NCBI GenBank assembly: GCA_024275415.1
Contig: JAJRZD010000058.1
Coordinates: 1-32,000 of the forward strand
From: an archaeon
GTDB taxonomy: Archaea > Asgardarchaeota > Thorarchaeia > Thorarchaeales > Thorarchaeaceae
Reading direction: 5' to 3'
DNA: 32,000 bases
Shown here: piece by piece, positions 1,690 through 19,873 of the stretch
Position numbering within the stretch: the first letter of the stretch is position 1
Layout: every line of letters begins with the position of its first letter
Notes under the pieces: generated by a model
The model's input: only the letters and a program-made list of their open reading frames with translations
Databases searched by the model: none
What the model was told of the DNA's origin: nothing
Program-made: the position numbers and the translations under genes

Positions 1690-1701
1690 TGTAAACCACC
1701 A

Positions 1702-1953
1702 TTAATACCTATCAAAGTACTCAAGCACACGCTTCCTAGAGCTTTCGTCATCGTTGCCCACTTTGTCGGCCAGAGTTTCACCCCGTACATTGAGGTTTTC
1801 ATCGATAAAGACTGTGAGCACATGATCCCCATGATCGAAGGCAACTGATAGGACACCCACCTGCGAGGGTTCGAAGGCGTCAATGTCAACCTCTTCAGTG
1901 TACCACTTGTCGCAACGCTTGCATCGGACACGTATTGTCTTGTTAGAGGTCAT
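1702..1953 (-). CDS. Small putative Zn-binding protein (CxxC ... DHGDH..IDENLNVR), Asgard-type
   Basis: RCKRC plus an HxxH-IDxNxxVR motif; stop lies 13 bp before the 7TM start. Confidence 0.7.
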   Translation of the reverse strand: MTSNKTIRVRCKRCDKWYTEEVDIDAFEPSQVGVLSVAFDHGDHVLTVFIDENLNVRGETLADKVGNDDESSRKRVLEYFDRY

Positions 1954-1979
1954 TCTATCACACTCACATCAATGAACTT

Positions 1980-2546: not shown

Positions 2547-2630
2547 TCTCGCGTTTTATGTTATTTACATTATCTTGTATCAATTCTTCACTAAATAGGA
2601 CGCTGTGCGAAAGGTAAACTGATGATTTCA

Positions 2631-3050
2631 ACGAAATTGTTTCTTCTTCGAAATACTGTGGGATATTGTGTGATTCATCACATATGGCTAATTGTTGAGA
2701 ATCACCGTTTATTGTACGTTGTATAAACTTTGACACCAGAGCGTTGTACTCCCAAAGAACGGCGTTGGGTGGACTCTGGGAGTTCCTACGTGTGTCATGG
2801 ATGACCTCATTGAATATGCCTCGTCGAAACTATACAAGCACCCACAGCAAGAGGTCTAGGATAGTCTAGGTTTTGTACAGCCGTTATCAACCCTTCAGGC
2901 GCATTTGTCCAAGTCTAGAAAATGACTGATCAACGTAGTCCTGCTTGAGATCGAATCCGACCGCATTCCGATCAAGGTCTTGAGCCGCTACAAGAGGTGT
3001 GCCACTTCCGACAAAAGGATCCAGAACCAACTCTCCTTTGTGATTGAACA
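2631..3050 (-). pseudogene. Fragment of a DNA methyltransferase paralogous to 14464..15354, split by an insert of about 180 bp
   Basis: 2631-2706 and about 2886-3050 align at nucleotide level to about 14907-15140 (GDSQQLAICDESHNIPQYFEEETISL; ELVLDPFVGSG). Confidence 0.85.
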
Positions 3051-3119
3051 GAGGGATGGATACCTGATTAATGCAAAAAAGACCTGTTTTCTCGTTGGGG
3101 CCAGACCTGATGACCGAGC

Positions 3120-3776
3120 TTACGGATAGTACAAATCCCAGTCTGGATGGAAGCTGTGGATCATTGCCATTATCTCATTGTAGGCGTTCTCAGAGAAGTA
3201 GGGCTCAGGATTCTGCCATTGTCCGTCTTTGATTACCCCGAAATGGATATGGGCACTACCTCCGACATGCAGAAAATCGGCAATCTTCTCGCCAATGTCC
3301 ACCCAGTCGCCTTCTTGGATTTCTAACATCTCCAGTTGGAGATCCTTGTCAGAAGAGTCCTGTGTCCATGGCTCGAAATTGTAATGCACAACAACAGACG
3401 CGTTGAACCTGATGACCACTGTGATGTAGAACCGGTTCTCCACGTTCTCACCGTTGTCAGAGATATCTATCGACTCGACCAGACCAGGTGCGGCAGCAAT
3501 GACTGTAGAACCGTTCCTGAAGAAATAGTCAATCCCATTATGCACGAAGCCCCACGGGCAGTTGTCACTCTCGCTATATCCCTCGTTGAATGCTACAATG
3601 TCAGTTCTGTTCTCGTAGATGACTCCCATGTAGTCAAGCTCGTCCGCATCATAGCGACCTCCAGCGTCGAATGTAGGAGCCAATGGGGTTGAACCTTCGT
3701 TTGAACCTTTGAGGGCTACGACCACACCAATTCCCATGAGAAGTATTAGCAGGCATACCACTGATTTTCGTGCCAT
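3120..3776 (-). CDS. Membrane-anchored M23-family peptidase (copy 2, close paralog of 211..855)
   Basis: Near-identical protein with the same HNGID/HIH motifs; 4 aa longer near the N-terminus. Confidence 0.8.
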   Translation of the reverse strand: MARKSVVCLLILLMGIGVVVALKGSNEGSTPLAPTFDAGGRYDADELDYMGVIYENRTDIVAFNEGYSESDNCPWGFVHNGIDYFFRNGSTVIAAAPGLVESIDISDNGENVENRFYITVVIRFNASVVVHYNFEPWTQDSSDKDLQLEMLEIQEGDWVDIGEKIADFLHVGGSAHIHFGVIKDGQWQNPEPYFSENAYNEIMAMIHSFHPDWDLYYP

Positions 3777-3869
3777 ATAGAGATAGTGTGGGCAGTTCCT
3801 AAAAACATTTGTTCCAACTGTCTGGCACCATACTTTCGGAAACGGTAGTCTGTGAAGGCACTCGCTGGC

Positions 3870-3972
3870 TTATTGGCGGTTGTCCGGAGCAGTGGAGGTA
3901 GTTGTCTTCACAGAGAGGCGAACTCGGAGCCAAGAAGGCATGACCCAACCCATATAGGTCAGGACATAGGAC
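3870..3972 (-). pseudogene. 3' remnant of a 7TM paralog (SYVLTYMGWVMPSWLRVRLSVKTT...), truncated next to an IS end
   Basis: Aligns to the 3' end of 949..1689; homology stops about 15 bp before the TIR at 3987. Confidence 0.8.
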
Positions 3973-3986
3973 GGAGCCCTGATTAA

Positions 3987-4004
3987 GGAGCTGTGTGAAA
4001 AGTC
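3987..4004 (+). repeat. Orphan terminal inverted repeat GGAGCTGTGTGAAAAGTC of the IS5-like family
   Basis: 16/18 identical to the IS end at 7323; no partner end found nearby. Confidence 0.75.
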
Positions 4005-4190
4005 TGACTGAACGCCATAGAATTGACGGTAGTCCGATTGACTCTGAAATCTTATGACCCAGTTATTGGACTAGAAGTTCTGATGATGATTAATACGTGG
4101 ATGATAGAACCTTTGGACATTACTCAAACTTTTAATATCATCTTTCTGTGGACAGGTTCTTACAAGAGCATTATCCGACGAGGGTGCTAG

Positions 4191-4946
4191 AAAACGGAAG
4201 GCATCGTACTATTAACAGTTAGTGGAATCCTAGGAATAGTTGCAGGTTTCGCATCAGGGCTTTTTGGAATAGGTGGCGGTTCTATCAGAATCCCCTTATT
4301 GAAAATAGCAGGGTTCAGCTTGATATCAGCCTATGGGATCAATATCCTGACGCTTCCTATTACAGCCTCAATCGGTGCGGCTTCACAGAGAAAGAATATT
4401 GACTATCGGCTTGGGCTGTATATGGTTCTAGGTGGGTCCCTGGGAACGGTCATCGGAACCTTCATTGCATTCTCGATAGCGACCTCAGAAATACTCCTCG
4501 CGATTGTCTTCTTCCTCGCATCGATAACAGCGGTTGTCGCGCTGAACCTGAAACGAATCGCTCCAGAAACAACGGACGGTCTTGTGGCTTCGCGGGAAAG
4601 TGTTTCTATTGGTACTTGCACATGTAATGTCTTGACTGGGATAAGGGGAGGAAGCGAAGGCTCACTATTCGTTCCACTCCTTACTGCTCTGAATGTTGAT
4701 ACTCACAGAGCCATCGCAACGTCTCTCTTTGCGGCTGTCTTTACGGCTACGGTCGGCATCTTCATGTATTGGAGCAACGGATACCTTTTGATACCAGAGG
4801 GGCTTGCCGTCGTCATCGGTTCCGTGGTGGGTGCGCGACTAGGGAGTCGTGTGTCACTCAAGACGAGATCCAGGGTCTTGGAGTTAGGTCTCACAGCTGT
4901 CATCCTTGTCTTGGCATTCATAACACTGCTGACCACCTTGGCCTAG
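4191..4946 (+). CDS. TauE/SafE-family (DUF81) membrane protein; start uncertain, possibly frameshifted
   Basis: The frame is open from 4191 and contains GLFGIGGGSIRIP upstream of the called TTG; second repeat GIRGGSEGSLFVP and AIATSL. A GTG at 4184 is out of frame. Confidence 0.8.
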   Translation, partial: KTEGIVLLTVSGILGIVAGFASGLFGIGGGSIRIPLLKIAGFSLISAYGINILTLPITASIGAASQRKNIDYRLGLYMVLGGSLGTVIGTFIAFSIATSEILLAIVFFLASITAVVALNLKRIAPETTDGLVASRESVSIGTCTCNVLTGIRGGSEGSLFVPLLTALNVDTHRAIATSLFAAVFTATVGIFMYWSNGYLLIPEGLAVVIGSVVGARLGSRVSLKTRSRVLELGLTAVILVLAFITLLTTLA

Positions 4947-5149
4947 GCAGAGTGAATCCGAGAAACAGTCATGGCAAATGGACTAGACTCCTATGTGAAG
5001 TCATTTACAAGTTCCTTAAGATGCTTGATTTTTTTCTAGTATATTCATCCACAACTTGCCATTTGAACCAGTAATGTTCAAGTTCACCTTGGTGATATGT
5101 GCTTGTTGGCAACCTCAAAAATGAAGGGCGGGCAATAGGCGGCTTGATA

Positions 5150-5731
5150 GTGGAAAGGATAATGGTTTTCATCGATGGCATGAACTTTCGCAGGGCGTGG
5201 ATATCTGTTTGTACGGAGAGGGGCATGCCAAGACGTACTCGATTCGATGTGGTCAAACTGCGAAACCTATTGTCCGCGCTATCACCAGATCGTGAAGTAG
5301 TAAGAATACACTACTACAGCTCCACAATCCCACCAAAGGACTCGAAATACTACAACAATCTGAATAGCATCGACCCACGAGGCTTCAATGGAATGCTGAA
5401 GAGGAAAGGCTACAAGTGCTTCATTCTGAAAAATCGAGTCAGACATGAAAAATGTCCTCTCTGCGGGGAGAGATTCCCCATTGTCAAGGAGAAGGGTGTT
5501 GATGTTATGATTGCACTTGATATGATGATGAAAGGGATTGAAAATGCATTCGATGTGGCTCTGCTTGTCAGCGGTGATGCTGATTTCATACCAGTTGTGA
5601 ATCTGCTCACCAAGAAAGGGAAGAAAGTGGAGGTCGCACAGTTTAGTAATGCTATCTCATGGTTCTTGAGAAAGTCAGTGAATAGAGTCTATGATCTTGA
5701 CGGACATTTCGATGGTCTTGTTCTAAAATGA
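5150..5731 (+). CDS. NYN domain (LabA/DUF88) PIN-like nuclease with a CPLCG zinc-knuckle insert
   Basis: VFIDGMNF, KEKGVDVMIALDM, LVSGDADFIPVV and GKKVEV motifs; GTG at 5150 is the likely start. Confidence 0.9.
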   Translation: MERIMVFIDGMNFRRAWISVCTERGMPRRTRFDVVKLRNLLSALSPDREVVRIHYYSSTIPPKDSKYYNNLNSIDPRGFNGMLKRKGYKCFILKNRVRHEKCPLCGERFPIVKEKGVDVMIALDMMMKGIENAFDVALLVSGDADFIPVVNLLTKKGKKVEVAQFSNAISWFLRKSVNRVYDLDGHFDGLVLK

Positions 5732-6101
5732 ATGAAAGGCGAGGCAGTCAGTCATTTCGGTAGAGAATTACGACTGCTACGAGACTTAGTCTACTGCCCG
5801 CCGCGTCGTAATGTAGTTCATGATGAATATTAATAAACATAACGGAACTTTGAAACGATTTCAGAGAATCCGCATTATGAAAGGCATTATAGATACGGTC
5901 TGCTGTGTCTTCAATGACGTACCGGATCTGTGCATAGTTGCCCCAAAGATGAAGAATGTCTAGATTTGCCTATGTCTATTGTTGCTTGATGCGCTTTACG
6001 CAGGCATCGTCATCCTCAGCCCGAGTTTCGGTCCAATCGAAAAAAGATGCAACTCCGATTCTGATTCTTAGATCTGTATGGATATCATAACGACAGCTGT
6101 G

Positions 6102-6109
6102 TATAAATA
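6102..6109 (+). promoter_or_regulatory. Archaeal TATA box of the vapBC operon
   Basis: TATAAATA about 26-33 nt upstream of the ATG at 6135. Confidence 0.55.
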
Positions 6110-6134
6110 GGGATGATATGGATATGTATCAGAG

Positions 6135-6359
6135 ATGGGACTAATGTCAAAAAACATCATGATCAGCAATGAGGTCTATTCACGACTTCGAGCTATAAAG
6201 AGAGATGATGAGTCATTCAGCGATTTGATCCGAAGACTCCTGAATTACCAGAGAACAAGTCTACTTGACCTCGCGGGAGAATGGCCATTTTCTGCAAGAG
6301 AAACCAGTGAGAAAGAAAAACAGTTAGAGGAAACCTGGCAGAAAGGGTGGCGTAAATGA
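6135..6359 (+). CDS. vapB: VapB-type antitoxin (archaeal DUF217-like)
   Basis: SKNIMISNEVYSRL...ESFSDLIRRLL; stop overlaps the PIN toxin start. Confidence 0.85.
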   Translation: MGLMSKNIMISNEVYSRLRAIKRDDESFSDLIRRLLNYQRTSLLDLAGEWPFSARETSEKEKQLEETWQKGWRK

Positions 6360-6772
6360 CTCTATTATCATTGGACACATCATTTCTGATAGATTTTCTG
6401 GCAGGTGAGTCATCGGCCGTAGAGAAAATGAAGCAAATAGAAATCGATGGAGATATGACATCTGTATCAAGTGTTGTCGTATACGAGCTACTCGTCCTGT
6501 CAGCAGATGACCGAAAACCAAACCGAGCTCAGAAAGCAATCAATACAGTAGAATCACTCCTCTCCAGGATAGGGGTTATATGGCCATTTAACACCAGTGT
6601 AGCACGACTTGCTGCAGAAATACAGAGAATTCAGATGCTTAAGGGAAAACCTGTTAGTGTTCGTGACTTGTTCATAGCTGCTTCATCTTTAGCAAATGGT
6701 TGCAACACAGTGATTACGAAGAATGTTAGAGATTTTGAAGTTATAGACGGGATCAAAGTTGAATCGTATTGA
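6356..6772 (+). CDS. vapC: VapC PIN-domain toxin
   Basis: LDTSFLIDFL, VYELL, DLFIAA and ITKNVRDF acidic PIN motifs; 138 aa. Confidence 0.92.
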   Translation: MTLLSLDTSFLIDFLAGESSAVEKMKQIEIDGDMTSVSSVVVYELLVLSADDRKPNRAQKAINTVESLLSRIGVIWPFNTSVARLAAEIQRIQMLKGKPVSVRDLFIAASSLANGCNTVITKNVRDFEVIDGIKVESY

Positions 6773-6875
6773 AACAATAATCAGAACGAAATGTGGGGTA
6801 AGACCAAGATGATTAGTATCAAACGTAGTCATGAAAATGACACCGTACTAGCAGAAAGTAAAAAACTTACCAATC

Positions 6876-7133
6876 TTGTCATCAGGCATTGTAGTCAGAA
6901 CCGTAATTATAGCAAGACGTCTTGGGGTGTCACCTTCCACCTTGAGGAGGTGGGAACGCAAAGGGGCATATATACCACGTAATACGACACTAATGCAGTG
7001 CAGGTCCTGCGGACAAGCTGTGGACCGTCACACCAATGCTGCCATGACCTATGCTAACCGAGCCCTGTCCGCATACCAGGGCTCAATCCAGGCTTCTCCT
7101 TGCGGAGGTGACACGTTTGTACAAGTTCAATAG
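6876..7133 (+). mobile_element. Internally deleted IS607-like remnant (TnpA HTH joined to the TnpB C-terminus)
   Basis: IARRLGVSPSTLRRWERKG (MerR-like HTH of IS607 TnpA) followed directly by QCRSCG..DRHTNAA (TnpB Zn finger and final RuvC motif). Confidence 0.7.
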
Positions 7134-7322
7134 TATGCGTATGTCAGTTTTAGGTGACATACAATCATTAAAAACTATGACAATGAGGATGAATAGCAGC
7201 TCGTAAGATTCCCTTTTCAAAATCACATCTATCATTAACCCCAGCATCCCGTTATTCTCTTGCTTTAATGAATTACTTGATACCATCATAACTGACTGTG
7301 ATGCGAACAATGGCACAATTTC

Positions 7323-8060
7323 GGCTCTGTGTGAAAAGTCACCTCCCGTCGCACTCCAAGAAGTCCAGTCGTGCTATGTTGTGAAGAATGACCTTGAACA
7401 ACAACCCTCGACGCTGCTCCTTGTATCTTCTTGGACTCGACCCTCCACCAGACCTCACCTTCACCATCCCAAAAACGGTCTCCACAAGACTCCTCTTTCC
7501 ATAGCTGTGTTTCTTTTTCCACTCCCTTGGATCTCTCCGGTACTCCCTGATCAACTCCTTGTATCCTCGATAACCCCGTGACCAGGCTTCCAACCTCTTC
7601 TTCGATCCTAGAGCTGGATAGGCTCCCAGGTCATGGATGTATTGGACGTCCTTTCGGGAGATGTAGGCCTTGTCCCCGTAGACATACTGGAGGGATCGAT
7701 GAACCACTCGTTTCAGGGACTGTTGAAGGACGGAGTAGGAGGGAGGTCGCTTGAGACCGAGTCGGTCAAGGAGGAGTGGGGTGAAGCCAAGTTGAGCAAC
7801 AAAGATCCGGTAGATGAGTCCAGAGTCGGACTTGAGGCCCAGGAGGACAAAGAGAGCAGGGAGTGGAAAGTCAGGAGGTCTTCCGAAAGGAGAGGTTTTG
7901 AAAGGTATCATATTGCTAAGCTTGATAAGTCCATCGAGTAAGACCTGATAGTGACGAGACCTGGCTGTGTCGTATGATGACTGGTAGGACATGAATTATG
8001 TGATCCAGTGGGTCTGGTCACATATCCTTGTATTACTTCTTCGACTTTTCACACAGAGCC
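7323..8060 (-). mobile_element. IS5-family (IS903-like) element, 738 bp, perfect 18-bp TIRs, internally deleted
   Basis: GGCTCTGTGTGAAAAGTC at 7323-7340 and its exact reverse complement at 8043-8060; the transposase stop codon lies inside a TIR. Confidence 0.85.
7339..7992 (-). pseudogene. Truncated DDE transposase (IS5 family)
   Basis: YGDKAY and YGKRSLVETVFGMVK motifs present; 217 aa with no recognisable first catalytic Asp region. Confidence 0.75.
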
Positions 8061-9033
8061 CAATATCTCCAAAGGTTTTAATTCCTCTTTCTGCACCAAT
8101 TGCATCAGATCTTGTCGTAGTCATGAATAATGATGACAAGGTATCAGCTGCTGTGAAGCAATTCAAGAGGGAATGAAGAACATTAAGATAGTCACCTTTG
8201 GCTCAATAGATTTTATCCTATCCATATCGAGAATCATTGAGAAAACAGTTTGGGTTTCTCATGGATATGAAGATGGAATATTAACGCTTAGCACCAAAGT
8301 CAGCTAGAAGGACTTTAGTGGCTATATCGATAAGACACCTCGAAAAGACATTGTATTAGCCTGTGAATCTAACAATTTGAAGAATTACATTTCACCTCAG
8401 GATGCCATTGTTTCTGATGGATCTGTTGAAGCTCATGTCATGGGATTTACAGTTGCAGCTGTCCTTCTGGCATCATCCAAAGGGCTCGGGAATCCTGAAA
8501 CCCATGCATCTGTGAACAAAGCCTTTGATGCAATCAATGATATAGCTACTGGTGCTTCAGAACCTCTCTTTCTTGGTTTAATTCCCGCATGGTGGTTGCT
8601 TACCAAAATTGCTTTGATCAGTATTCTGACAGCATGGTGTTTTACTACTGCTGAATCACAAGTACCTGCAGCTCTTGCTGAAGCAGTACATCCAATACTC
8701 ATTATTTTCGGAATCGCATTCATCTTCAGTACATTTTCTTCACTGTTGTTGCTTCTGGTTCAAGATGCATTTCCGGGATTCTCGTCTTTCCTATCGATTG
8801 TTTCTGTATTTCTAAACTTATTAGCAGGACTGGCAATTCAAAAAATCATCCAAGGTGCATTGCATGGCGGTGCATACCTGCTTGGCTTAGCAGCTGGAAA
8901 AGCCGCTAGTTTGACTGGTGCAAGTGTTTCGTGGTCTCAACCATGGATTAGAGCAGCTTTTGCAGCATCTGCTGCAATACTCGCTGTTTCCATCATTGAC
9001 TTTATAGTGGTTACAGTCTATACACTGATGTAA
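8061..9033 (+). pseudogene. Disrupted gene: caspase/CHAT-like His-Cys domain followed by hydrophobic Ala/Gly-rich helices
   Basis: The frame from ATG 8173 reads VWVSHGYEDG...VS*KDF...IVLACES with an in-frame TAG at 8305-8307 and runs into ORF 8377..9033. An upstream piece (8061-8176) is in another frame and abuts the IS end. Confidence 0.55.
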
Positions 9034-9107
9034 TCCGGTAAATGGTGGAATCCTTGAGCGATTAAATATCACCACAACAGCAGCAATATCCAATCAAGTT
9101 TCCAAAA

Positions 9108-9791
9108 ATGCAACTATATCTTCGATGGACTGCTATATCCGGACTACTCATTGCTATGTTTTATCTCGTAATTCAAAGAACTGGGATTCCTCCTGATGCA
9201 ACAGGGGTAATCCCTACAATCTCTTTCATCACCTTTGTAAGTCTTGCAGGACTATTGATGTTCTTAGAAATCATGATTCTGGGTGCAACATTGTCTTTAA
9301 GCATTTGGCGTTCAGCTGCAATAACTTGGGTCACATCAAATAGTGAAGAAAAGATTACACCATCGGACATCCAGCTACTACGAAGAGCTGCTGCAATTCC
9401 TTACAGAAACGTACAGATTGGTATCTCACCTTTGGCTCTTGCATTAGTACTTGCTATAGTTTCTCTCCCAATCGGTAAGACTCTCATCACATCTCCCGAA
9501 CTTGAATTAGTCGACTGGATTCTAGTTATGACATGGGTTTCTCTTGGTTTTAATATCCTGATTGAATATAGTCATATGCGACTGGAAACCAAGTATTCCC
9601 AACTACCTGAAGCACAACTGGTTCAGACTCTAACCATAGCAAATCCTGTTCGAGTACCATTTTCCGGTATCATCGATGTGCTAGATTCCCCAGCACCAGA
9701 GAAAAATCCAAGGATATATCTAATGGTGCTTGTCCTGCTTGTTATTTTATGGAGTATGTCTGTGATTATCCTCTCTGGATTGCTTCAATGA
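9108..9791 (+). CDS. Multi-pass membrane protein of unknown function
   Basis: 227-aa ORF with about 5 hydrophobic segments. Confidence 0.7.
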   Translation: MQLYLRWTAISGLLIAMFYLVIQRTGIPPDATGVIPTISFITFVSLAGLLMFLEIMILGATLSLSIWRSAAITWVTSNSEEKITPSDIQLLRRAAAIPYRNVQIGISPLALALVLAIVSLPIGKTLITSPELELVDWILVMTWVSLGFNILIEYSHMRLETKYSQLPEAQLVQTLTIANPVRVPFSGIIDVLDSPAPEKNPRIYLMVLVLLVILWSMSVIILSGLLQ

Positions 9792-10164
9792 TGGACATAT
9801 CGTTTATGGGACTAGGAATTCCTACAAGAAAAGCTAGAAGAAAAATGGCGTCTATTGCTTCAAGAAAAACTCCCAGATCTCCCGAAAAGTTTCAGTCCCG
9901 TATGTATACCCATTATATGGCATAAGGCCAGTCTTTCCTGATGCCCTGTTTTGATGGTGACAGGGTAAGTCTGAAATCTTCACAGGATGGCAATCATGTT
10001 CCAAGTATGCAGCCCAGAGTGTGTTGAACACAGCGTGAGGACTTGTTCCGATTGTGGTGAACCAAGACCCTCTTAGAGAGTCTATCATATTCATGCTTCA
10101 GCAATGGTGGCTACAGCAGATTAGATTAACCCATCTACAAACTTTGCAGTTCCTGATAGCACCA

Positions 10165-11380
10165 TTATTGAGGGTTTGGTTCGGTCATAGAATGTTCGAG
10201 TAGCCTCCTCACCTGACTGAGCAATAATCTACTTATCCGTGATAGAGAAGGTAGTTTTAGCTTTCTAAGTGTGTTTTTAGAAATTGGTCTTTTGAGGTAA
10301 TCAAATCTATGGAATGCCATGAATAGCACTTCTGTCGCAGAACCTCGTCCAGCTTTTCTCTTACCCTGTTTACTAGTCATTCCTCCCAATCCTTTGACCC
10401 AATTCTCATGGATAGTTCTTGCCTTTCCCGATGATAATTTACTTATTCGTAGATAATTCTGATGATGTTGATTCCACAAATTCTTGAATTTACCCTTTGA
10501 GAAGGTAATGACATCTGCTTTGGCTATAATCCCATCTGGATAGACCCAAAAGAAAGCTGACCAGTTTTGGGTCGATTGGGGTGGTTCAAAACGAGCTGGG
10601 AGCAAGATTCCTTGTAATCCTTTCTCCATGTATTCAAGTTGCCTGGTGCTTGATTGTACATATAGACCTGAAAACTCGCTTTCGATCTCCTTGTGAATCT
10701 TCTTTAATTCTTGAGATGTTTGCCTTCTTGTCATTGGACTCGGAGGTGTTTCCACATACACATTGGCAACATCGGTGACAAAGCTCTCAAGATGCCCAGT
10801 AGTATAGAGATCCTCGATTGCAGTCTGAACCGAACCATCATCCAATTCTAGATCGTCCGAATCTCTGTCTATAGCAATGTTATGTTCCCAGGACATTTCT
10901 TCTAAATACAGACCCTGAATGGCATCAACAGTTTCTGCGCTCAAGTGTGCAAGAAACGAATCGCCTCTCATAGCTAATAGACTTCTGATGAAGTTGATAT
11001 ACGATGCAGTAAATGGTTCGCCTTTTGACAGTTCAATGTCACTAACAACAATGGTCACATCCTTCTTCATGTATGGTGTGCGTTTGACTCCTTTCTGTAT
11101 ACTGACAAAATCCGATGCTTGGGCATGGGGTACTTCACCTCTCCTGATAGAAACGGTAGGCGGAGGTGCTAACGATCGAGTGCCAAACATCTCGTCCATC
11201 CTCTTATTAGCCGCATCCATCAGAGGATTCCATTGTTTGGAAAACCGCCATATTTGATATTTCCATTTTCCTCTGAACCATACCCATACGAAGAATGCAG
11301 TAATAGTGAAAGACACAGCCGCATTAATGATTATCTCAAATATCGCTATTTGGATGGCGAACCCCTCCTACGAATATCAT
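10165..11380 (-). pseudogene. Membrane-anchored protein with a C-terminal ASCH/PUA-like region; 1-nt frameshift near the 5' end
   Basis: ATG at 11380 (3 nt after the upstream stop) gives MIFVGG; removing one G from the run at 11362-11365 continues into FAIQIAIFEIIINAAVSF and the long ORF. The C-terminal FWVY..GIIAKADV..LWNQ..RPIS pattern resembles ASCH. Confidence 0.55.
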
Positions 11381-11383
11381 TAG

Positions 11384-11770
11384 CTAATGAGTAATCATGA
11401 ACTCGTGAATCCGCATCAAGTATGTCTTGAAGCAGGACTGCTCTCTACAGATGAAGTCTTTTTCACCCCTTTCCTCCATTATTGACCATAAGTTATCAAA
11501 GGTGATAGTTGTTTCACAGACCGGACATTTGTATTGCCCATCAAGGAACTGTTCCAAGATTCCTTCTTTCTTCAACTTTCTTCTAACTTCTTGAGTGGAG
11601 GCAGGTCGCCAACCGGCTCCTGATCTAGTCATTCTTTTCTGAGCTGTTATGGTACCTAATAATACCCCCATTCCCACGCCCACTAGGATTTCAATCATTC
11701 TCATCACCTCTGGTGATTCTAACACTAAATATTCCCATTGAACTGCGTAAACACTCTCGTTCCTTTTCAA
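11384..11770 (-). CDS. Small membrane-anchored protein with a putative Zn site (CPVC...CREQSC)
   Basis: N-terminal hydrophobic helix IEILVGVGMGVLLG and four cysteines; true start is probably the internal MIEIL. Confidence 0.65.
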   Translation of the reverse strand: MKRNESVYAVQWEYLVLESPEVMRMIEILVGVGMGVLLGTITAQKRMTRSGAGWRPASTQEVRRKLKKEGILEQFLDGQYKCPVCETTITFDNLWSIMEERGEKDFICREQSCFKTYLMRIHEFMITH

Positions 11771-11925
11771 AATATAGTTGTTTCGGATGTGTCATCCCCT
11801 TATAAAATGGTCTTACATACTGTAGTGTGTCCTGAAAGAATTTATTTTTTTACCGACCCTAACTGATGAGTCATCTGTCCTCAGATAGTGTGAAATGCTT
11901 GTCAGCAAGTTCATGGCTTGGTTAG

Positions 11926-12195
11926 CGAACACATACTGGAAGAGCAGAAATATTGAATCCACGCTTTGAACACAATGGAGTTTCACTTGGTGTCGAAGCC
12001 AAGTATTCTGAAGGAAAGATGCGTTTTCCTATCAGAAGTGCATTAGGACAAATACTAGAATACAATCCAATCCATAGCGGATAGAACCTCACTTTAGCAA
12101 TCGATGACCATTCCCTGTCAAGCGATATTGAAGAAAATGTTGAACAATCATTCGATTTTCCACGTGGAGAATCATCACAAGAAACCTTAAGATAG
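11926..12195 (+). pseudogene. Remnant of a PD-(D/E)xK nuclease
   Basis: The frame reads TGRAEILNPRFEHNGVSLGVEAK...ALGQILEY..*NLTLAID; TAG at 12082-12084; no start codon. Confidence 0.5.
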
Positions 12196-12264
12196 GGGAA
12201 ACCTTAATCATGGTCGTGTAGAATCTGTGCACTAATCAGGCGATATATTTCTGGGGGCGGAGAG

Positions 12265-12708
12265 ATGTCAGAAGGAACACGGAACAACCCGCGAAGAGTA
12301 TCAGTGAGATGGTTCAAACCAATTCCGTATTCAGATCTGCGCGACTGGAAGGGTGAGTACTATGAGGTTCTCTATGTGGTTTACAAGGGGTCGGAAATCC
12401 TCTACGTTGGGATGGCATACGACCAATATGTTGACATACGACTTGGAAACCATCACAAGCTCTCTGAGATAGCGAAAATCGAAAATCAGAGAGGACTTGT
12501 TATCTCGTTTGGAGAATTGCGATTGAAACATGGAAGACGACTTAGTAGACGGCTGGTCGAAGAGATTGAGAACCTGCTCATATTTTACTACGAGCCCAAG
12601 TACAACAAACGAGGCATTTATACGTACACGGGACGCGAACTTGTCATCCGTAACAGCGGACCCGGAAATCCGTTTGACCAAACTGTTTCAAGCTTACAAC
12701 TCGACTGA
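12265..12708 (+). CDS. GIY-YIG superfamily nuclease
   Basis: VLYVVY..ILYVGMA, RL..H, EEIENLLI and PKYNKR match the GIY-YIG Y/G/R/E/N pattern. Confidence 0.75.
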   Translation: MSEGTRNNPRRVSVRWFKPIPYSDLRDWKGEYYEVLYVVYKGSEILYVGMAYDQYVDIRLGNHHKLSEIAKIENQRGLVISFGELRLKHGRRLSRRLVEEIENLLIFYYEPKYNKRGIYTYTGRELVIRNSGPGNPFDQTVSSLQLD

Positions 12709-13002
12709 TTCTAATGAAGGATCTACAGGAACGTATACACCATCTTAAAGTTGCTAGCTCCGCAATTTTGAACTTGTATATGATGTGATTTGGGAACGAC
12801 TAAGGTCAGCTCATAGTTGGAGGGCTTAGTCGTTCGTTCGGTGTATAGTCGGCACTACTCACCTGCATGGAAAGTCTGGCTCAGAAACGTTTTTGGAAAT
12901 AAATGACAATGGTATTCTTGCGTGGAAAGGGATTTCCGTTCAGAAGTTAGTTAAGGGCATATGAATGAATAATTAGATTGACTCGAAGTTTCGGGTGAGG
13001 TA

Positions 13003-13567
13003 GTGACAAAACCACATCCATGGCAGTTGACGAACTGGATTGTATTAGTTATTGCAATATTAGTCATGATAGTTCAAGACATCGCTGGACTAGTTGGATT
13101 AACACTTCAAGGAGTGATGTCAATCATTCTAGAATTATTGGTGTCCTCTTCATTGGTGTTTCACTTCTTGGCAAAGGTCAGCCTCCAAACGTTGACCGGT
13201 CGAAAACGCTGGATTCTCATTGACTACAGTAGTAGGTCTGTTCTTTGGGATTAGTATGTTGCTGTTCCCGAAGTTTATCATTGATATCATCGAGATTTCG
13301 TATCTGCATGGGGAAACTGCGAGGGCAAGATGCATAGGAGTGTGGGCACTAGCTGGTGCAGTGTTTGCGTTCTTTGTGAAAGATAAGAGCCACTCAAGCC
13401 TCCGCCAGTCGATATTCATCCTGTACGACATCATCTTTATCCTGATGATCATTGTCGAGCTGCTCGCATACTTTCTCGGACTGGCAGGAGTCATGATCTG
13501 GATCATAATCGTAATCCACTCGCTCTTTGCAATTCTCTACACGTATCTTTTCGTAGAGAACCACTAG
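13003..13567 (+). pseudogene. Membrane protein, apparently one gene split by a frameshift near 13220
   Basis: Two overlapping hydrophobic ORFs (13003..13254, 13220..13567) join into a continuous TM segment WILI/TTVVGLFFG. Confidence 0.5.
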
Positions 13568-13757
13568 ACTCAAACTATGATCTATGGAAACAACGATAGA
13601 AGTCGAGTTTCTCAATCGAATTGTATTTGGATGCTCCGTTCTACTCGAATATGAGAATCGGATATCAAAAACAGTTTTGGGGTTGCTCTTCCAGCAAGCA
13701 GTAACACACGATTTTAATATAAATCGCTGAATCACACGCAACAGGATTGTAGTAGAT

Positions 13758-14474
13758 GTGATGCCTCCCACGAGAGATATTATTGATGAGATTCTAAGGG
13801 ATAATCCTAAGCTTGACGTAAATGCGATTCATGCCCGAACGTGGGATAAAATGAAGGAGTACCGAAGCAGATATTTCAAAGAGCAAGTGGATATCTTTAT
13901 TGATTCGCTAGAGATTTCGGATGAGGCAAAGCGAATCGTCCGAAATGCACTCTTAGAGCCAGTTGTGATAGACGATGTGGAGTACGAGAGTTTCCTTGTT
14001 GGTATCGGAAGAAAGATGAGCCAAAGTATCCAACCAAGAAGTGGAAAATCAGCAGAGTACTGTGGTGAGATTGAATTACAACGACAGGGGCTAGAGCGAG
14101 GCGTACACTTTACTGTAAGAAACAAGCGTTCTGATTTGACGCTTTACCATCCGGATCTCGAATCACCCAAAGCAACTCATCGAGTTGAGGTAAAGAATAT
14201 GAAGATTAGAGAGCGTGGTGTTCGGGGTCTTTCGTTCGATGGAGATTCTCTCTTCGGTTTCTTTGATGAGCCAGGTGAATTCACAGAAGGAGAATTACAG
14301 GTGATAGAAAGGAAGTTGGGGCAAACAGGCGGGTATGTGTATTTGCCAATAGGTACGTTGAAGAGTATAGAAGCAAAAATAGATAAGGATCTCAATCACA
14401 TATTGCGCGAGAATACGAGATTTGGCCCTGATATGGCAAAGTTTGTTCAAACTGGAAGCATCCCTAGGGACTAG
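13758..14474 (+). CDS. Type II restriction endonuclease (PD-(D/E)xK; Ecl18kI/EcoRII-C-like motifs)
   Basis: RSGKSAE, SDLTL, VEVKNMKIRER; convergent with and overlapping a methyltransferase by 11 nt. Confidence 0.75.
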   Translation: MMPPTRDIIDEILRDNPKLDVNAIHARTWDKMKEYRSRYFKEQVDIFIDSLEISDEAKRIVRNALLEPVVIDDVEYESFLVGIGRKMSQSIQPRSGKSAEYCGEIELQRQGLERGVHFTVRNKRSDLTLYHPDLESPKATHRVEVKNMKIRERGVRGLSFDGDSLFGFFDEPGEFTEGELQVIERKLGQTGGYVYLPIGTLKSIEAKIDKDLNHILRENTRFGPDMAKFVQTGSIPRD

Positions 14475-15354
14475 GGGGTTTCCAAAAGTCAAGGATATAC
14501 TCGAAAGTCGTTCCTAGCGTGATATAGTTATTGGGCCACCCGAAAATTCCAGCTTTGTTCACAAGGTTTCTTCGATCCCATATGATTATATTGCGTAACT
14601 CATATCCTACTCGTTCCATGACCTCAACTGTGTAGATGTGAATAGGAATTCGCTTGTTCTCCCACCACAAGTCAGTGATGTTAATGACACAGTGTGCCTT
14701 AGGTCTAAGCAGTGGAAGGATTCCTTTGTAAATTTCGCCCAACGTTTCAGTATACGGATGTGCTTTCATAGTCCCAAGATCACGAGGGTCATCTGAATAT
14801 TGTTGAACAGTATCATAGTGTTCGTTTTTCCGGAGGTCACCTCGTATGCTCTTATTCTTCCTCGGACGATTGAGCATGTTAGAATATGGAGGCGAGGTCA
14901 CACACAACGAGATTGTTTCTTCTTCGAAATACTTTGGGATATTATGTGAATCATCACATATTGCTAATTGTTGAGAATCGCCTTCCAAGCGCGTTTGCCC
15001 AAGTCTAGAAAGTGACAGATCAACATAGTCCTGCTTGAGATCGAACCCAACCGCATTCCGATCAAGATCCTGAGCTGCGACAAGGGTCGTGCCACTTCCG
15101 ACGAAGGGATCCAGAACTAACTCTCCTTTGTGAGTGAACAATTGGATACATTTTGTAGGGAGACCTATTGGAAACACTGCCGGATGGATCTTCTTGTCGC
15201 GGATGTCGCGTTTTTCGTAGAAAAACTCCCATATCGCAACTTGACTCTTCATCCATTCCTTTGCCGTCATGCAATTAATATGATTTGATTTACAATTGCA
15301 TGTTTGTGTATGCCCGATTTTCAAAGGCTGGGTGATTTTTTGCGAGGACTGCAT
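14464..15354 (-). CDS. Amino-methyltransferase (probably N4-cytosine) with permuted motif order
   Basis: HPAVFP and DPFVGSGTT (motifs X/I) precede TSPPY (motif IV). Confidence 0.9.
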   Translation of the reverse strand: MQSSQKITQPLKIGHTQTCNCKSNHINCMTAKEWMKSQVAIWEFFYEKRDIRDKKIHPAVFPIGLPTKCIQLFTHKGELVLDPFVGSGTTLVAAQDLDRNAVGFDLKQDYVDLSLSRLGQTRLEGDSQQLAICDDSHNIPKYFEEETISLCVTSPPYSNMLNRPRKNKSIRGDLRKNEHYDTVQQYSDDPRDLGTMKAHPYTETLGEIYKGILPLLRPKAHCVINITDLWWENKRIPIHIYTVEVMERVGYELRNIIIWDRRNLVNKAGIFGWPNNYITLGTTFEYILDFWKPPSP

Positions 15355-15405
15355 TTTACTCGACCATGAAATCGAATAAAGCTATTAAAGCTCTTCCTAA
15401 AAGAT

Positions 15406-15537
15406 GGCTCTGTGTGAAAAGTCAGCTGGAGGGTTCTGTTTGAAATCAGCATGGATGATTGCGTGTCAAAATTCCAACACCTCACTCCTTACCACCATCG
15501 ATCTTATGATGTCCGGTCGGACTTTTCACACAACTCC
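15406..15537. mobile_element. 132-bp MITE, copy 1
   Basis: Left end is identical to the IS TIR; right end is GACTTTTCACACAACTCC; about 85% identical to 21102..21233 by manual alignment. Confidence 0.85.
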
Positions 15538-15557
15538 CACGATTTCATATTCCTTAT

Positions 15558-16046
15558 ATGAGTCGCTGTGATATTGATAGGACAAAGATGATGTTGCTGG
15601 AATTCTTTGATGAAAAGGCATATCGGTTCTTTGATGCACTACATGTGGGTGTTGTCATCCTCGATTCGAACGATCGAATTGTCCTCTTCAACCAGATGGC
15701 AGGAAAAATGCTCGGGCAAGACCCGTCTAGTCGAATCAATAGTTCGATCTTGAGATGCCATCCCGAACGTGCCGAACCCGGTGTGAAAAAGATGATAGAC
15801 CAGTTGAAGTCTGGTGAGTTGAAGGAGTACTCTGGCTGGGTGAACTTTCAACACCGCATCTATTGGGAACACATCTATCCGATAAGGAACGAAAAAGGAG
15901 ATTACCTTGCTACGGTCATGGAGCTTCACGATGGCTCTGCTAAGGCGCGACTGCTCGAACTTGAAGGAGAATTCGTCAAACCTGAACTGCACGGGGTCGG
16001 CGAAAGTTCTCCCCGAAGCCCTGTTCCCGAGTCCGAACTAAGATAG
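15558..16046 (+). CDS. Stand-alone PAS-domain protein
   Basis: FDALHVGVVILDSNDRIVLFNQMA..MLG, CHP, and PIRNEKGDYLATV are PAS signatures. Confidence 0.85.
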   Translation: MSRCDIDRTKMMLLEFFDEKAYRFFDALHVGVVILDSNDRIVLFNQMAGKMLGQDPSSRINSSILRCHPERAEPGVKKMIDQLKSGELKEYSGWVNFQHRIYWEHIYPIRNEKGDYLATVMELHDGSAKARLLELEGEFVKPELHGVGESSPRSPVPESELR

Positions 16047-16370
16047 TCCCTTTGCTCATATGGTCGCAGGGTAAAAGCCCGGCTCTATCGTTTCATCACA
16101 TTTCGGAAATGTTGTATCCATCTGCGATATCCTCCAACTCAGAATCAGAACTGCAAAAAAATGGTTCAATCTATTGTCGTTCGTGCAACATGGATCCAAT
16201 TCCTTACGTTGGTCGTACTAACAGCAGAACTTTGCCACTCTGAGTTTAACATGGATTGGTATCTAATCATTCAAACGAAAATACTTGTGTGTGCATTCTA
16301 ATAAAATTCAGCAAGTCGTCAGGTTCCAAAATCAATGGATTCCAGACATGTGATACCTAATTAAATAAGA

Positions 16371-16377
16371 TATATAA
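16371..16377 (+). promoter_or_regulatory. TATA box of the CARF-HTH gene
   Basis: TATATAA 26-32 nt upstream of the ATG at 16403. Confidence 0.55.
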
Positions 16378-16402
16378 TGGAACACTATGACTGAATATCG
16401 AA

Positions 16403-17107
16403 ATGACTGCAAAGAAACGTATTGTGTATATTGCGACTGTTGGGAGTAGTATTGAACCAGTTCAAAAGGGAATTCTCTATGCATCGCCTGATATCGCATA
16501 TCTTCTATTTGGGGCAAGTCCAAAGCTTAAAGAGAGAAATCCAGAGCTTGTCGCACGGAAGGTTAAGGAGAACATAAAACCATTGGGGCTAACAAAATGT
16601 CATCTCCGAGAGATTGATGCTTTCTCCTTAGAGAGTGTTATGACCGAGGTTATCAAAATCTGGCAGAAACACATGAAGGACAGAATCATCGCCAATATGA
16701 CAGGGGGAACTAACATTATGGCTTCTGCCTGTCTTCTTGCAGGTTTCACTGCATCCGCAGATGTGATCTATGTGAAGGAAGTGCAGGAAGGAGAAGATAT
16801 TCCACTTCGTGAGCAAGTCATCGTTCTTCCAACTCCGAGAATCCCTCTCACTAGCTTGACTGACGAACAACAGGAGATACTCCGACTACTCCTGAATGAA
16901 ACTGAGGCTGGCACAACTCTTCTCGCAAGGGCAAATAGCAGAATTGCAGACCATATGAAAGTAACGCCTCAGACAATTTCGCACCACCTTAAACGCATGG
17001 AACAGAAGGCATTGATACGCCGGGAGAAGGAAGGTAGGCACCTGAATGTAGAACTAACCCCATCAGGGCTTCTATTTGCAAGAATGCTTGAAAAAACAAA
17101 AGAGTGA
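16403..17107 (+). CDS. csa3: Csa3-like CARF-winged-HTH transcriptional regulator
   Basis: N-terminal CARF (YIATVGSSIEP, IIANMTGGTNIMA, DVIYV) and C-terminal wHTH (IADHMKVTPQTISHHLKRME..LI...GR...ELTPSG). Confidence 0.8.
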   Translation: MTAKKRIVYIATVGSSIEPVQKGILYASPDIAYLLFGASPKLKERNPELVARKVKENIKPLGLTKCHLREIDAFSLESVMTEVIKIWQKHMKDRIIANMTGGTNIMASACLLAGFTASADVIYVKEVQEGEDIPLREQVIVLPTPRIPLTSLTDEQQEILRLLLNETEAGTTLLARANSRIADHMKVTPQTISHHLKRMEQKALIRREKEGRHLNVELTPSGLLFARMLEKTKE

Positions 17108-17119
17108 AATGATGCATAT

Positions 17120-17140
17120 ATTTCGATTGTGTATCGAAAT
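17120..17140. promoter_or_regulatory. Perfect palindrome ATTTCGAT-N5-ATCGAAAT, candidate operator
   Basis: 8-5-8 inverted repeat between the regulator gene and the viperin remnant. Confidence 0.5.
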
Positions 17141-17183
17141 GTAAGAGAAATTATTTTAGTATATTGTACCCCTACTTTAAACT

Positions 17184-17400
17184 ATGATTCCCAGAACCAA
17201 GTGGATAGATGATACGCCCTCCCAGAACTCGGATCTTTCAGTTAGAAGTGTTAACTGGCACGTTTGGCCACACTGCAACTATTCTTGTAAATTCTGCTTT
17301 GTATCGACCACCTCGCATACAAATGCCTTGAAATACGGATGTGGAGAAATTGTAGGAAGGCTGTCAAGATGGTAACCGAACGCATTCAACTTCGGTCGGG
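17184..17400 (+). pseudogene. Viperin-like radical SAM remnant
   Basis: SVNWHVWPHCNYSCKFCF matches the viperin SVNxH..CNYxCxFCF signature; 17368-17396 reads DG/TERI/NFG across two 1-nt shifts. Confidence 0.65.
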
Positions 17401-17784
17401 TCAGTCGCATCTCGCGCTATCAATCACTCAGCCTCAGTATTCATCCTTTATGCCTTGTGTCATTTCATCTTGAGAGTCAGATCATCTACATCCACAACAT
17501 CATTGTAGGTGTAATCGTTGGTGACATTTCCGGATGAAAATCACAGTAATATACAGTTAGGTGAACTTGATCATCTTCACAGACAGTACTCGAGGATCAA
17601 ATTTATCCAGCTTTGTAGAATAATTCGTATGTTACAAAGAAATACAGCAGGATCCGAACTCGGTCATGTCACTTTGCAGACAGTTCGAAAGGGAATGACT
17701 CACGATTCTAATCAAACAATTGTGGACTAGTAGACTTTTTCTACAGGGTTAATTTAGCCGGATGATTAATAAGTTCGATAATAC

Positions 17785-18759
17785 ATGGTATCGCGGGGGT
17801 ATGAATTGAGAGCGTTTTCGTCTTCGGGCTTCAAACCATTGGAAATTGTAAGTGATGGCGACCTTGATGGAATTTTTGCGGTAGGCATTCTGTTAAGGTA
17901 TTTTGATAGCGTTGGTATTTCGATACCATCTCGATTTCCCGCACCTAGAGAGCTACACAATCTCACTGTGGAAGATTCGATTCTTGTCGAGCTCGGTCCA
18001 ACAAAGGGACTACGGTTCAGAGGACATAATATGTTGATTGACCATCATGAGGGTTTCTCTGGGATTTACATGTTCAATGGCCCCGATATGGAAAGTCCAA
18101 TAGCAGAATTCGATGGTATAATGTCGGTGGTAGAAATCGTAGTGGCATATCTGAACAACGAAATCTTGATCGACTCTAGTATGCAAGAGTTAATCGACAT
18201 TGTGGGTGAGATTGACAATGGTGTATACAATCATCCAAAGGCTCGTGCTCTGCACCATGCATACATGCTAAACGTGACATCGAAAGAGATGAGGCAGAAA
18301 CTCCCAGAATGGGTACGAACTAATCAAGTGGACGTAATCTGGAAGTGGGTTGAGGTCGAATCGAAACGATGGGAACAAGTCCAGACGGTATCAGCAGCAT
18401 TGATTGATTCTGTATCAGAGGTGTCCTCAGATATCGGATTCATTTTAGTCGATTTAGATGATAATATCCAACAGATGGCTGCACGCGAGGCTATGCTTCA
18501 ACTAGAGGAACAATATAGAATCGTAATAACACTACTAGGAACCCATAACAAAGAATGGATGATCTCCCGAGGCGGCATCGGTTCAAAGAGTCATTCCGTT
18601 GACTTCACATCATTATATGACCTTCTCAGAGAGAAAGGACTGACCGCGGGTGGACGACCAACAATTGGAGGGTTTCAGTTTCTAGAGCCATATCCACTGG
18701 CCAATGTTCTCGTTCTGCTACGTAATGTTCTTGCGAGGGTTAGTGATGACAGAAAATAA
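17785..18759 (+). CDS. DHH/DHHA1-family phosphoesterase
   Basis: SDGDLDG (DxDG), LVELG, LIDHH, GEID and C-terminal AGGRPTIGG (variant of GGH..A.G). Confidence 0.85.
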   Translation: MVSRGYELRAFSSSGFKPLEIVSDGDLDGIFAVGILLRYFDSVGISIPSRFPAPRELHNLTVEDSILVELGPTKGLRFRGHNMLIDHHEGFSGIYMFNGPDMESPIAEFDGIMSVVEIVVAYLNNEILIDSSMQELIDIVGEIDNGVYNHPKARALHHAYMLNVTSKEMRQKLPEWVRTNQVDVIWKWVEVESKRWEQVQTVSAALIDSVSEVSSDIGFILVDLDDNIQQMAAREAMLQLEEQYRIVITLLGTHNKEWMISRGGIGSKSHSVDFTSLYDLLREKGLTAGGRPTIGGFQFLEPYPLANVLVLLRNVLARVSDDRK

Positions 18760-19873
18760 CAAATTAAAAGTGCATAGAGAAAAATCGTTCAAATTAGCGA
18801 ATCTTGATATTGCAGCATCGATGTACGAGTATATAGAAATCGACGAAGTGGAGTTAGAATGGGTAGACAAGTTTCTTACTATGAGGGCTTATGAGGACAA
18901 GCCGTCCAAGAAAACAAAAGCAGATTTTGATAAACACTGGATCGTAGGGAAACTTCTAATTAAGATGCCTTACTCGTTGACTTGTAGAAGTTCTGATGAT
19001 GTGCAGATGAAAAAAAATGAAGATAGTAACTCATTAGATTTAGAAATACGTTTGAGAGATGTGATTCCGGAGGTTAATCTACTTCTAAACCAAATAATTG
19101 CGATTGTCTATGATGGTTCTCGTGACAAAATTCTACGCGAGATTCAAAGCAGTGTGAATATAGCTATTGAAGAGATGCTGTCAACAATGAAAACAGGGCA
19201 AATAAGTCCCTTTCTGTGCTCACTAAGTCTGTTCAAGTCAAAAATAGATTGGCTAAGAAGGACGGATGCAAAGGATTTCAAACCTCAGCACTCGGTATCA
19301 AATGATTGCAAGCAGCTTCGTGTTAGTTTAAGTTCACAAGATTCCGTTAGTCAATTGCTGGGATATTTCGATAACACAGCTAAATACAATTTGTATGTCT
19401 TTACTGTTGGAACGTTTGATCCTATTCTGTTAGAAAGATACAGTAAATTCCTGGATGGGTTAATTTCTGATGGAACAAAGTACATGTTGTTTGTTGGCAC
19501 TGAGTATTCAGGGAAGGAACTGGATAAGATATCTAACAACATTAGAAACCAAGAAATTAAAATAAAAAAAATCACAATCTATTCTTCAAAGGATAAAGCA
19601 TCACCTAACGGAACTGACCGGATATCTAAGGAAATTGAGGGAATGGACAGAATTGATAAAGCGGCAGTCATAATCTCTGCATTTCCAAAGAAACTCATAA
19701 AACCTTTACTTCAGGACTGCAAGCAATTGCTCAAATGTGGGGTAGGATCGGTGGATATCGTATCCACCGCTACAATACCGCTCCCAGCTCCAATTGAAGA
19801 TGATGATGGTTCTCCAACTAGAAAGCCTCGCATAATAGGATTCATTATGGGGCAAATCGAGGATTTCGTATAA
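18746..19873 (+). CDS. Uncharacterised protein with a putative divergent C-terminal CARF-like domain
   Basis: The ATG at 18746 overlaps the DHH stop region; the C-terminal 160 aa show a beta-alpha pattern YVFTVGTFDP..YMLFVGTE..AVIISAFPKKL..VDIV. Confidence 0.6.
   Translation: MTENNKLKVHREKSFKLANLDIAASMYEYIEIDEVELEWVDKFLTMRAYEDKPSKKTKADFDKHWIVGKLLIKMPYSLTCRSSDDVQMKKNEDSNSLDLEIRLRDVIPEVNLLLNQIIAIVYDGSRDKILREIQSSVNIAIEEMLSTMKTGQISPFLCSLSLFKSKIDWLRRTDAKDFKPQHSVSNDCKQLRVSLSSQDSVSQLLGYFDNTAKYNLYVFTVGTFDPILLERYSKFLDGLISDGTKYMLFVGTEYSGKELDKISNNIRNQEIKIKKITIYSSKDKASPNGTDRISKEIEGMDRIDKAAVIISAFPKKLIKPLLQDCKQLLKCGVGSVDIVSTATIPLPAPIEDDDGSPTRKPRIIGFIMGQIEDFV

Follow-up and report, generated by a model that had tools for sequence, protein, structure and literature searches.

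The window analysed here is the whole 32,000-nucleotide stretch at C37:1-32000 of host genome G000, a 3.5-Mb Thorarchaeota metagenome-assembled genome (MAG) in 127 contigs. Our subject is the segment at 7323-15537, which has an insertion sequence (IS) at its left end, MITE1, a MITE (miniature inverted-repeat transposable element), at its right end, and restriction-modification (RM), membrane-protein and other genes between the two (Table 1). GC content is 47-49% over positions 1-5000, close to the genome value of 47%, and 41-43% from ~5 kb on. Between ~5 and 32 kb the window holds an NYN-domain gene, VapBC, the IS-to-MITE1 unit, a PAS-domain gene, a Csa3-like regulator and a type III CRISPR-Cas operon, and this low-GC part is a defence island.

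Table 1. Features of the IS-to-MITE1 unit and its surroundings, in window coordinates.
Feature	Position	Strand	Remarks
Left flank of unit	7241-7322		82 bp; its last 9 bp are the left duplication copy
Left copy of 9-bp target duplication	7314-7322		CACAATTTC
IS	7323-8060	-	738 bp; perfect 18-bp inverted ends at 7323-7340 and 8043-8060, GGCTCTGTGTGAAAAGTC
Membrane-protein gene remnant	8061-9033	+	Cut by the IS at ~codon 17; frameshift near 8150
Second membrane protein	9108-9791	+	227 aa; orthologue of the gene after the first membrane gene in G003 and G006
Probable CARF gene fragment	9852-10094	-	80-aa stub matching only the first ~30 residues of CARF-PIN profiles
383-aa protein	10165-11316	-	No family match
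128-aa open reading frame	11384-11770	-	CxxC and C-x-x-x-C pairs; zinc-ribbon look by eye; no family match
GIY-YIG / Eco29kI-like nuclease candidate	12265-12708	+	147 aa; look-alike evidence only
Restriction endonuclease candidate	13758-14474	+	238 aa; EcoRII-C look-alike at 0.94; tail-to-tail with the methylase
Type II N4/N6 DNA methyltransferase	14464-15354	-	296 aa; PF01555 at 1e-27; PADLOC MTase_II 418 bits, full length
MITE1 inner flank	15383-15405	-	9-mer CTAAAAGAT and TATA-like box TTTAATA, 35 nt upstream of the methylase ATG
MITE1	15406-15537		132 bp; same family as the IS; supplies the outer right end of the unit
Right copy of 9-bp target duplication	15538-15546		CACGATTTC
TTATAT box	15553-15558	+	6 nt after the right duplication copy, 36 nt before the likely PAS-gene start at 15589
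MITE2	21102-21233		9/9 duplication, CCCAGCATT

The IS and MITE1 carry the same 18-bp terminal repeat. The left end of the IS (7323, forward) and the right end of MITE1 (15537, reverse) are ends of one family in inverted orientation, with the cargo between them. Immediately outside these two ends, the 9-mers CACAATTTC and CACGATTTC match at eight of nine positions, as a first-pass annotation of this DNA had claimed, and the unit with its CACRATTTC copies sits between ...AACAATGG on the left and ATATTCC... on the right. The two flanks of MITE1 itself match at two of nine positions, so MITE1 is without a duplication of its own. The whole unit, not its single arms, is bracketed by a target duplication of the family length, and the interrupted gene does not continue into the left flank of the IS. 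Neither bounding element is autonomous, again as had been claimed: the IS is without 87 codons, among them two aspartates of the DDE triad, and the MITE is without a gene.

The significance of the 8/9 match was assessed by an all-against-all comparison of the 33 family ends of G000, which gives 528 end pairs. Only the three true duplications and the pair formed by the IS left end and the MITE1 right end reached 8/9 or better. In a wider set of 154 distinct ends from all loci, from which contig-split insertions of one MAG and duplicate rows had been removed, ~4 of the ~11,700 unrelated pairs stood at 8/9, a chance rate of 3-4 in 10,000. Column frequencies of the verified duplications gave ~5 in 10,000 per pair by our own arithmetic. 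The window has 6-10 geometrically valid pairs, which puts the window-level chance at ~0.2-0.5%, and the outer match is well above chance.

The open reading frame (ORF) of the IS (7339-7992, 217 aa) matches DDE_Tnp_1 (PF01609) at 2e-7 and the NCBIfam IS5 model NF033579 at 3e-21; the latter score falls below the cut-off because of a deletion in the ORF. Alignment to an intact 304-aa transposase revealed that 87 codons (261 bp) are missing in frame between two LKRV repeats, and the lost codons hold the DSTGF and DTDT motifs with the first two Asp of the DDE triad. The intact transposase is encoded by a same-genus copy in G006 (L015:517-1431), which has a 9/9 duplication, while the only other transposase copy in G000, on C48, is frameshifted and truncated. 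In tblastn searches the intact protein found IS903B, ISPpa3 and further transposases of the IS5 family, with identities of 25-28% across 82-98% of its length. The IS903B end GGCTTTGTTGAATAAATC, taken from a plasmid record, agrees with the two end variants of the family at 12/18 and 15/18. Full-length IS copies measure 997-1000 bp and the MITEs 125-141 bp in G000 and other Thorarchaeota MAGs, and ~35 independent IS and MITE copies in these genomes have a 9-bp duplication of 8-9/9 identity, so that the earlier statement of a 9-bp family duplication is borne out. On sequence grounds the IS is a non-autonomous member of the IS5 family and, by descent, of the IS903 group; it is placed there because of the end match, the 9-bp duplication, the 1-kb size and the transposase matches. 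Members of the IS903 group measure about 1.0-1.06 kb and have ~18-bp inverted ends that begin with GGCT, a description that this family fits. The IS6 family had been a first guess from the end sequence, and was ruled out by the Pfam and NCBIfam matches to IS5. Nor is the unit an IS26-type translocatable unit, as the transposase is of IS5 and not IS6 type and only the 19-bp direct-repeat geometry (7323, 15406) resembles one.

The gene-less, multi-copy elements of 125-141 bp with family ends and 9-bp duplications are MITEs, and among them MITE1 is without its own duplication. MITE1 and MITE2 share 88% identity. The GGAG end variant, which forms the right end of MITE1, has been mobilised elsewhere, as MITE2 has a 9/9 duplication. 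A family-B MITE lies at 21415-21554, 180 bp from MITE2 and just upstream of cas10, with ends of type GGCTCTGTGGAATAAGTC that match IS903B at 15/18 and an 8/9 duplication, TCAGACTG(C/G). At 3987-4010, upstream of a TauE-like gene, a family end (GGAGCTGTGTGAAAAGTC) stands alone with no more than ~25 bp of MITE-like interior, and no partner end was found for it. Elsewhere, head-to-tail family ends exactly 9 bp apart occur at L026/L116 (G017:C18:8568-8708) and L032/L115 (G031:C65:47-57); in the G017 case an IS right end and a further left end enclose a MITE that has a 9/9 duplication. These arrangements could be tandem or dimer-like junctions of the family.

Target choice was analysed at ~35 verified insertion sites (L015-L103 and G000), with a scoring matrix trained on 19 one-sided sites. 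The verified sites are sharply marked on one side by a TATA-like box that starts 7-8 nt past the duplication. In 12 of 35 sites TATA falls at precisely +17, counted from the first duplicated base, and a loose box at +16 to +21 is present in 21/35, compared with 4.4% of random positions; +11 and +12 are A-rich and resemble a B recognition element (BRE-like). In the window the stretches concerned are 15547-15558 and 15383-15396. By a rough check, most of the box-bearing sites inspected have an ORF start within ~120 nt downstream, directed away from the element. Boxes on both sides were seen in only two of 35 single insertions. The 9-mers of the family carry little information and CACRATTTC is not a recurrent target; the preference is positional, beside a TATA-like box, and the objection that CAC(A/G)ATTTC might be a favoured target at many insertions does not hold. 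Scores of the four flanks in the unit differed. The IS-left flank scored -6.5, at background level, and the IS-right flank 6.1 (top 0.07% of background). The MITE1-left flank (15383-15405), a canonical family target, scored 5.7 (top 0.1%), and the MITE1-right flank, which has the modal target geometry of the family, 7.8 (top 0.02%). The PAS-gene ATG at 15589 is the point where cross-genus homology begins. Because MITE1 has boxes on both sides, which is rare in single insertions, its flanks are read as belonging to two separate insertion events, which a composite origin would call for. Taken together, the flank scores look like three insertions (the IS alone, MITE1 alone and the composite), with one box-bearing side each.

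A comparison with relatives bears on where the cargo came from. Intact 339-aa orthologues of the cut membrane gene occur in the congeners G006 (L011:4628-5647) and G003 (L012:1716-2735), and the homology to them starts directly at the IS right end, at ~codon 17. Neither the first codons of this gene nor its upstream neighbour, a paralogue, is present in the IS left flank or anywhere in the G000 assembly. Because the 5′ end of the cut gene is missing there, the left flank of the IS is not its original flank. In both congeners the membrane pair adjoins an orthologue of the G000 gene at C48:17244-18678, and in G006 only, membrane genes also lie beside orthologues of genes on G000 contig C73. In G000 the C48 gene and the enolase gene are direct neighbours, and no membrane genes intervene. 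The cargo is not native to the window flanks, since the membrane genes adjoin other genes in congeners; synteny of the cargo with these flanks in relatives lacking the IS, which would have spoken against a joint move, was not seen, the membrane genes being located elsewhere in G003 and G006.

A DNA search of 60 relatives with positions 4000-19000 returned matches only to the IS, the membrane pair, the methylase, VapBC, the PAS gene and the Csa3-like gene, and the surroundings differed in every case. The centre of the unit (9.8-13.7 kb) had no DNA-level match in these genomes, and the PAS-gene neighbourhoods in G016, G035 and G015 have no neighbours in common with the window. No public sequencing runs were listed as matching 6700-16500 or 15538-16400, and exact-protein look-ups of the Csa3-like protein and VapC gave no records. 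The membrane genes show a history of their own. In G003 (L012, C336) a 90-nt direct repeat (730-819 and 3571-3660, 86% identity) flanks three membrane genes; it consists of the enolase upstream region and 5′ end, and the orthologous G000 site (C48:18678-18754) is empty. This 2.8-kb membrane cassette looks like a separate insertion with a long target repeat, itself variable. The junction of the C48 gene and enolase was considered as a donor site and rejected, as it is empty only for the 2.8-kb cassette with 90-bp repeats in G003 and is not callable as a donor.

The cargo comprises defence genes, membrane genes and gene debris. The first-pass annotation had listed RM, GIY-YIG and membrane genes, and for each the cargo holds a gene or a candidate; the methylase is firm, while the nuclease and the GIY-YIG-like gene are look-alike candidates. 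The 238-aa nuclease candidate has no match in Pfam, NCBIfam, PADLOC or PDB, and its pairing with the methylase is conserved in G018:C38. Homologues of the 383-aa protein were found in six of 399 other Asgard genomes at 21-28% identity, none of them in the same genus. The CARF stub lies a few kb from the type III CRISPR-Cas locus. A 236-bp relic of the cargo methylase gene (14905-15140) is present at 2629-2706 and 2892-3050, in the same orientation and at 87-92% DNA identity. A 185-bp insert divides this relic, which sits 4.3 kb to the left of the unit, where the window has 47-49% GC; an older methylase copy may have left it behind.

The 82 bp directly left of the unit have a second copy at C9:74782-74863 (87% identity). 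Both copies end at the same nucleotide against a family terminal repeat, which belongs to a family-A IS here and to a 55-bp family-B MITE stub on C9; the flank at this truncated MITE end is CACAACTTC. In each copy one frame stays open, and a toxin gene has each of them downstream of it, VapC in the window and a putatively MazF-like gene on C9, the latter call being judged from C-terminal residues only. Over 44 nt the 82-bp flank weakly resembles a subtilase-like gene of G006; this match was set aside, as it is not significant at the protein level. Further left, a ~300-bp repeat at 6842-7141 has at least eight copies in the genome at 78-94% identity, with conserved, structured-looking blocks and no Rfam match; a search of the window returned no Rfam family.

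We consider 7323-15537 to be probably a composite (compound) transposon that moved as one unit. The first-pass annotation had proposed such a move, and every part of its account that could be checked held up. The anatomy, the 9-bp rule and the significance of the match are established here, and so are the loss of transposase function, the truncation of the membrane gene and the motif at the targets; that the segment moved jointly, in which order things happened and where the transposase came from is what we infer. This reading is favoured because the outer match is the sole non-self pair at 8/9 or better among the G000 end pairs, because MITE1 lacks a duplication of its own and the IS left flank is not original, and because the MITE1 flanks look like two separate insertions. 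The 9-bp family rule, the different setting of the membrane pair in congeners, an intact family transposase in the same genus and the known ability of the IS903 group to form composites argue in the same direction. In the proposed sequence of events, an IS903-group IS would first have inserted into the 5′ end of the membrane-protein gene, and a 132-bp MITE belonging to its family would have entered 7.3 kb away, upstream of the methylase promoter. The family transposase, supplied by this IS before its deletion or by another copy in trans, would then have paired the outer IS end with the outer MITE end. The whole segment would have moved to CACRATTTC, 6 nt upstream of the TATA-like box of the PAS-domain gene, at a landing site inside the low-GC defence island beside the type III CRISPR-Cas locus. 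CACRATTTC would have been duplicated on insertion, with one transition later altering one copy. The IS would later have lost its 87 codons, leaving the unit immobile unless transposase is supplied.

Several observations weigh against a composite transposon. The outer duplication is 8/9 and not 9/9. The first-pass annotation had held that neither element is flanked by a duplication of its own, which stands for MITE1; the flanks of the IS, CACAATTTC and CAATATCTC, agree at 6/9, above what that claim implied and a level reached by chance ~1-3% of the time. About one-fifth of the family copies in relatives have no duplication and no partner end within 20 kb, including five duplication-less IS copies for which no partner was found over that distance, and because of this a missing duplication alone is weak evidence. 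No intact family transposase is present in the G000 assembly. GC content does not tell the cargo (41-43%) from its flanks, as the whole 5-32 kb region is low relative to the genome. The recurrence of the 82-bp flank on C9 needs either two independent same-position insertions in paralogous targets or an older shared junction; because the targeting of the family is position-precise, two independent hits in paralogous targets would be plausible.

The search for relatives of the unit also falls on this side. An empty site or the same cargo at another locus had been suggested as a check, and neither was found in 60 relatives, 400 Asgard genomes and metagenome scans. No syntenic empty site was present among the 60 relatives, which are ~70% identical in DNA, a distance at which such absence is uninformative. 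The cargo was not found as a block at other loci, the homologues of the 383-aa protein having neither a similar neighbourhood nor family ends. The empty-site pattern (left flank, 9 N, right flank) gave 0 matches in metagenome contigs; the right flank alone also gave 0 matches, so the species is not represented in those contigs.

If the unit did not move jointly, the IS and MITE1 would have inserted separately into resident DNA, the 8/9 outer match would be coincidental, and their own duplications would have been lost by IS-mediated adjacent deletion or by recombination with other copies, with the A/T-rich target taste of the family aiding the match. Such a history would fit the ~20% of family copies in relatives that have neither a duplication nor a nearby partner end, the 6/9 agreement of the IS flanks and the four unrelated pairs at 8/9 among ~11,700; moreover, many windows were examined, and hence some chance cases are expected. 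We nevertheless regard it as unlikely, given a window-level chance of ~0.2-0.5% and a match that hits the one correctly oriented pair, formed by two elements that are both taken to be without duplications of their own. Canonical target boxes on both sides of MITE1, as in 2/35 single insertions, and the location of the membrane genes elsewhere in congeners likewise speak against separate insertion into resident DNA.

A different route to the same structure is recombinational capture, in which MITE1 alone inserted at CACRATTTC and made the duplication, and the IS with the cargo (7323-15405) entered later by recombination across the 19-bp direct repeat of the IS and MITE1 left ends, perhaps as a circle. 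This resembles a translocatable unit landing beside a resident copy. The required repeats exist, as 7323-7341 and 15406-15424 are identical over 19 bp, and the predicted end product is identical to what is observed, flank motifs included; the head-to-tail ends 9 bp apart in G017:C18 and G031:C65 hint at junctions of abutted ends. Capture nevertheless demands two rare recombinations across only 19 bp, against one ordinary transposition for the composite, and no circle or solo-MITE allele was seen. IS5-family elements are not known to use targeted conservative integration of the IS26 type. On balance we judge capture to be quite improbable. An assembly artefact, with the MAG contig chimeric at repeated ends, is conceivable in a 127-contig MAG with repeats and is highly improbable here, as the shared repeat of 18-19 bp is below usual assembly k-mers, the assembly has a single copy of the IS, the identity of MITE1 and MITE2 is only 88% and a chimera would not yield a matching 9-mer.

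A composite transposon of this kind has known counterparts. The IS903 group forms composites such as Tn903, in which two IS903 copies surround the cargo, e.g. pirAB-Tn903 (PMC5294582). Tn903-type elements and the Thorarchaeota family have in common the IS group, a size of ~1.0 kb and a single DDE transposase of ~305 aa in intact copies, and with the Thorarchaeota unit they share 18-bp inverted ends, a 9-bp duplication and, on the composite reading, a cargo mobilised by two outer ends. However, one arm of the Thorarchaeota unit is a 132-bp MITE and the other a catalytically dead IS, the host is an Asgard archaeon, the transposase is only ~25% identical to that of IS903B, and the cargo is made up of defence genes and gene debris rather than antibiotic resistance. 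MITE-bounded composites are represented by TIME-COMPs and integron mobilization units (PMC13367494). As in TIME-COMPs, a non-autonomous miniature element would serve as an arm and the cargo would be moved by a transposase supplied in trans; TIME-COMPs have Tn3-family ends and 5-bp duplications and occur in bacteria, whereas the Thorarchaeota unit has IS5/IS903-type ends and a 9-bp duplication, and its arms, an IS derivative and a MITE, are dissimilar. In Tn5, IS50L is defective and IS50R active (PMC10969869). Tn5 is likewise a composite with one defective bounding IS and paired outer ends, but keeps one active transposase gene where the Thorarchaeota unit now has none. Mobile RM systems flanked by IS or MITE-like repeats were reportedly described by Furuta, Abe and Kobayashi in 2010. 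The Thorarchaeota unit resembles them in having a putative type II RM gene pair inside a transposon-like unit that would have landed in a variable defence region, and differs in that it also holds unrelated gene fragments and its nuclease is a look-alike candidate only.

In the literature searched, we found neither composite transposons of Asgard archaea nor TATA-proximal targeting by archaeal ISs described, which is not proof of absence for either. The type of element is textbook, the Asgard host is unusual, and the promoter-proximal choice of target is a more unusual by-product of the analysis. The locus offers a concrete sequence-level example of defence-island growth in Asgard archaea, in which two non-autonomous relics of one IS family would have carried in a putative RM pair and accessory genes. 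A further result is the definition of an IS/MITE family of the IS903 group that is widespread in Thorarchaeota, makes 9-bp duplications and has a sharp TATA-adjacent site preference. This preference is testable, is usable for promoter annotation and bears on mobile elements living beside a eukaryote-like transcription apparatus. We raise, as a tentative and rather doubtful possibility, that the family finds its insertion sites by reading archaeal promoters, at a fixed distance that puts the end of the 9-bp target 8 nt upstream of the TATA box; equally speculatively, such reading would act via the sequence or via DNA bent by TBP/TFB. If this were true, the IS-MITE composite would be a vehicle that sets defence genes into gene-safe, promoter-adjacent slots of the defence island, and an archaeal counterpart of promoter-tethered integration in eukaryotic transposons.

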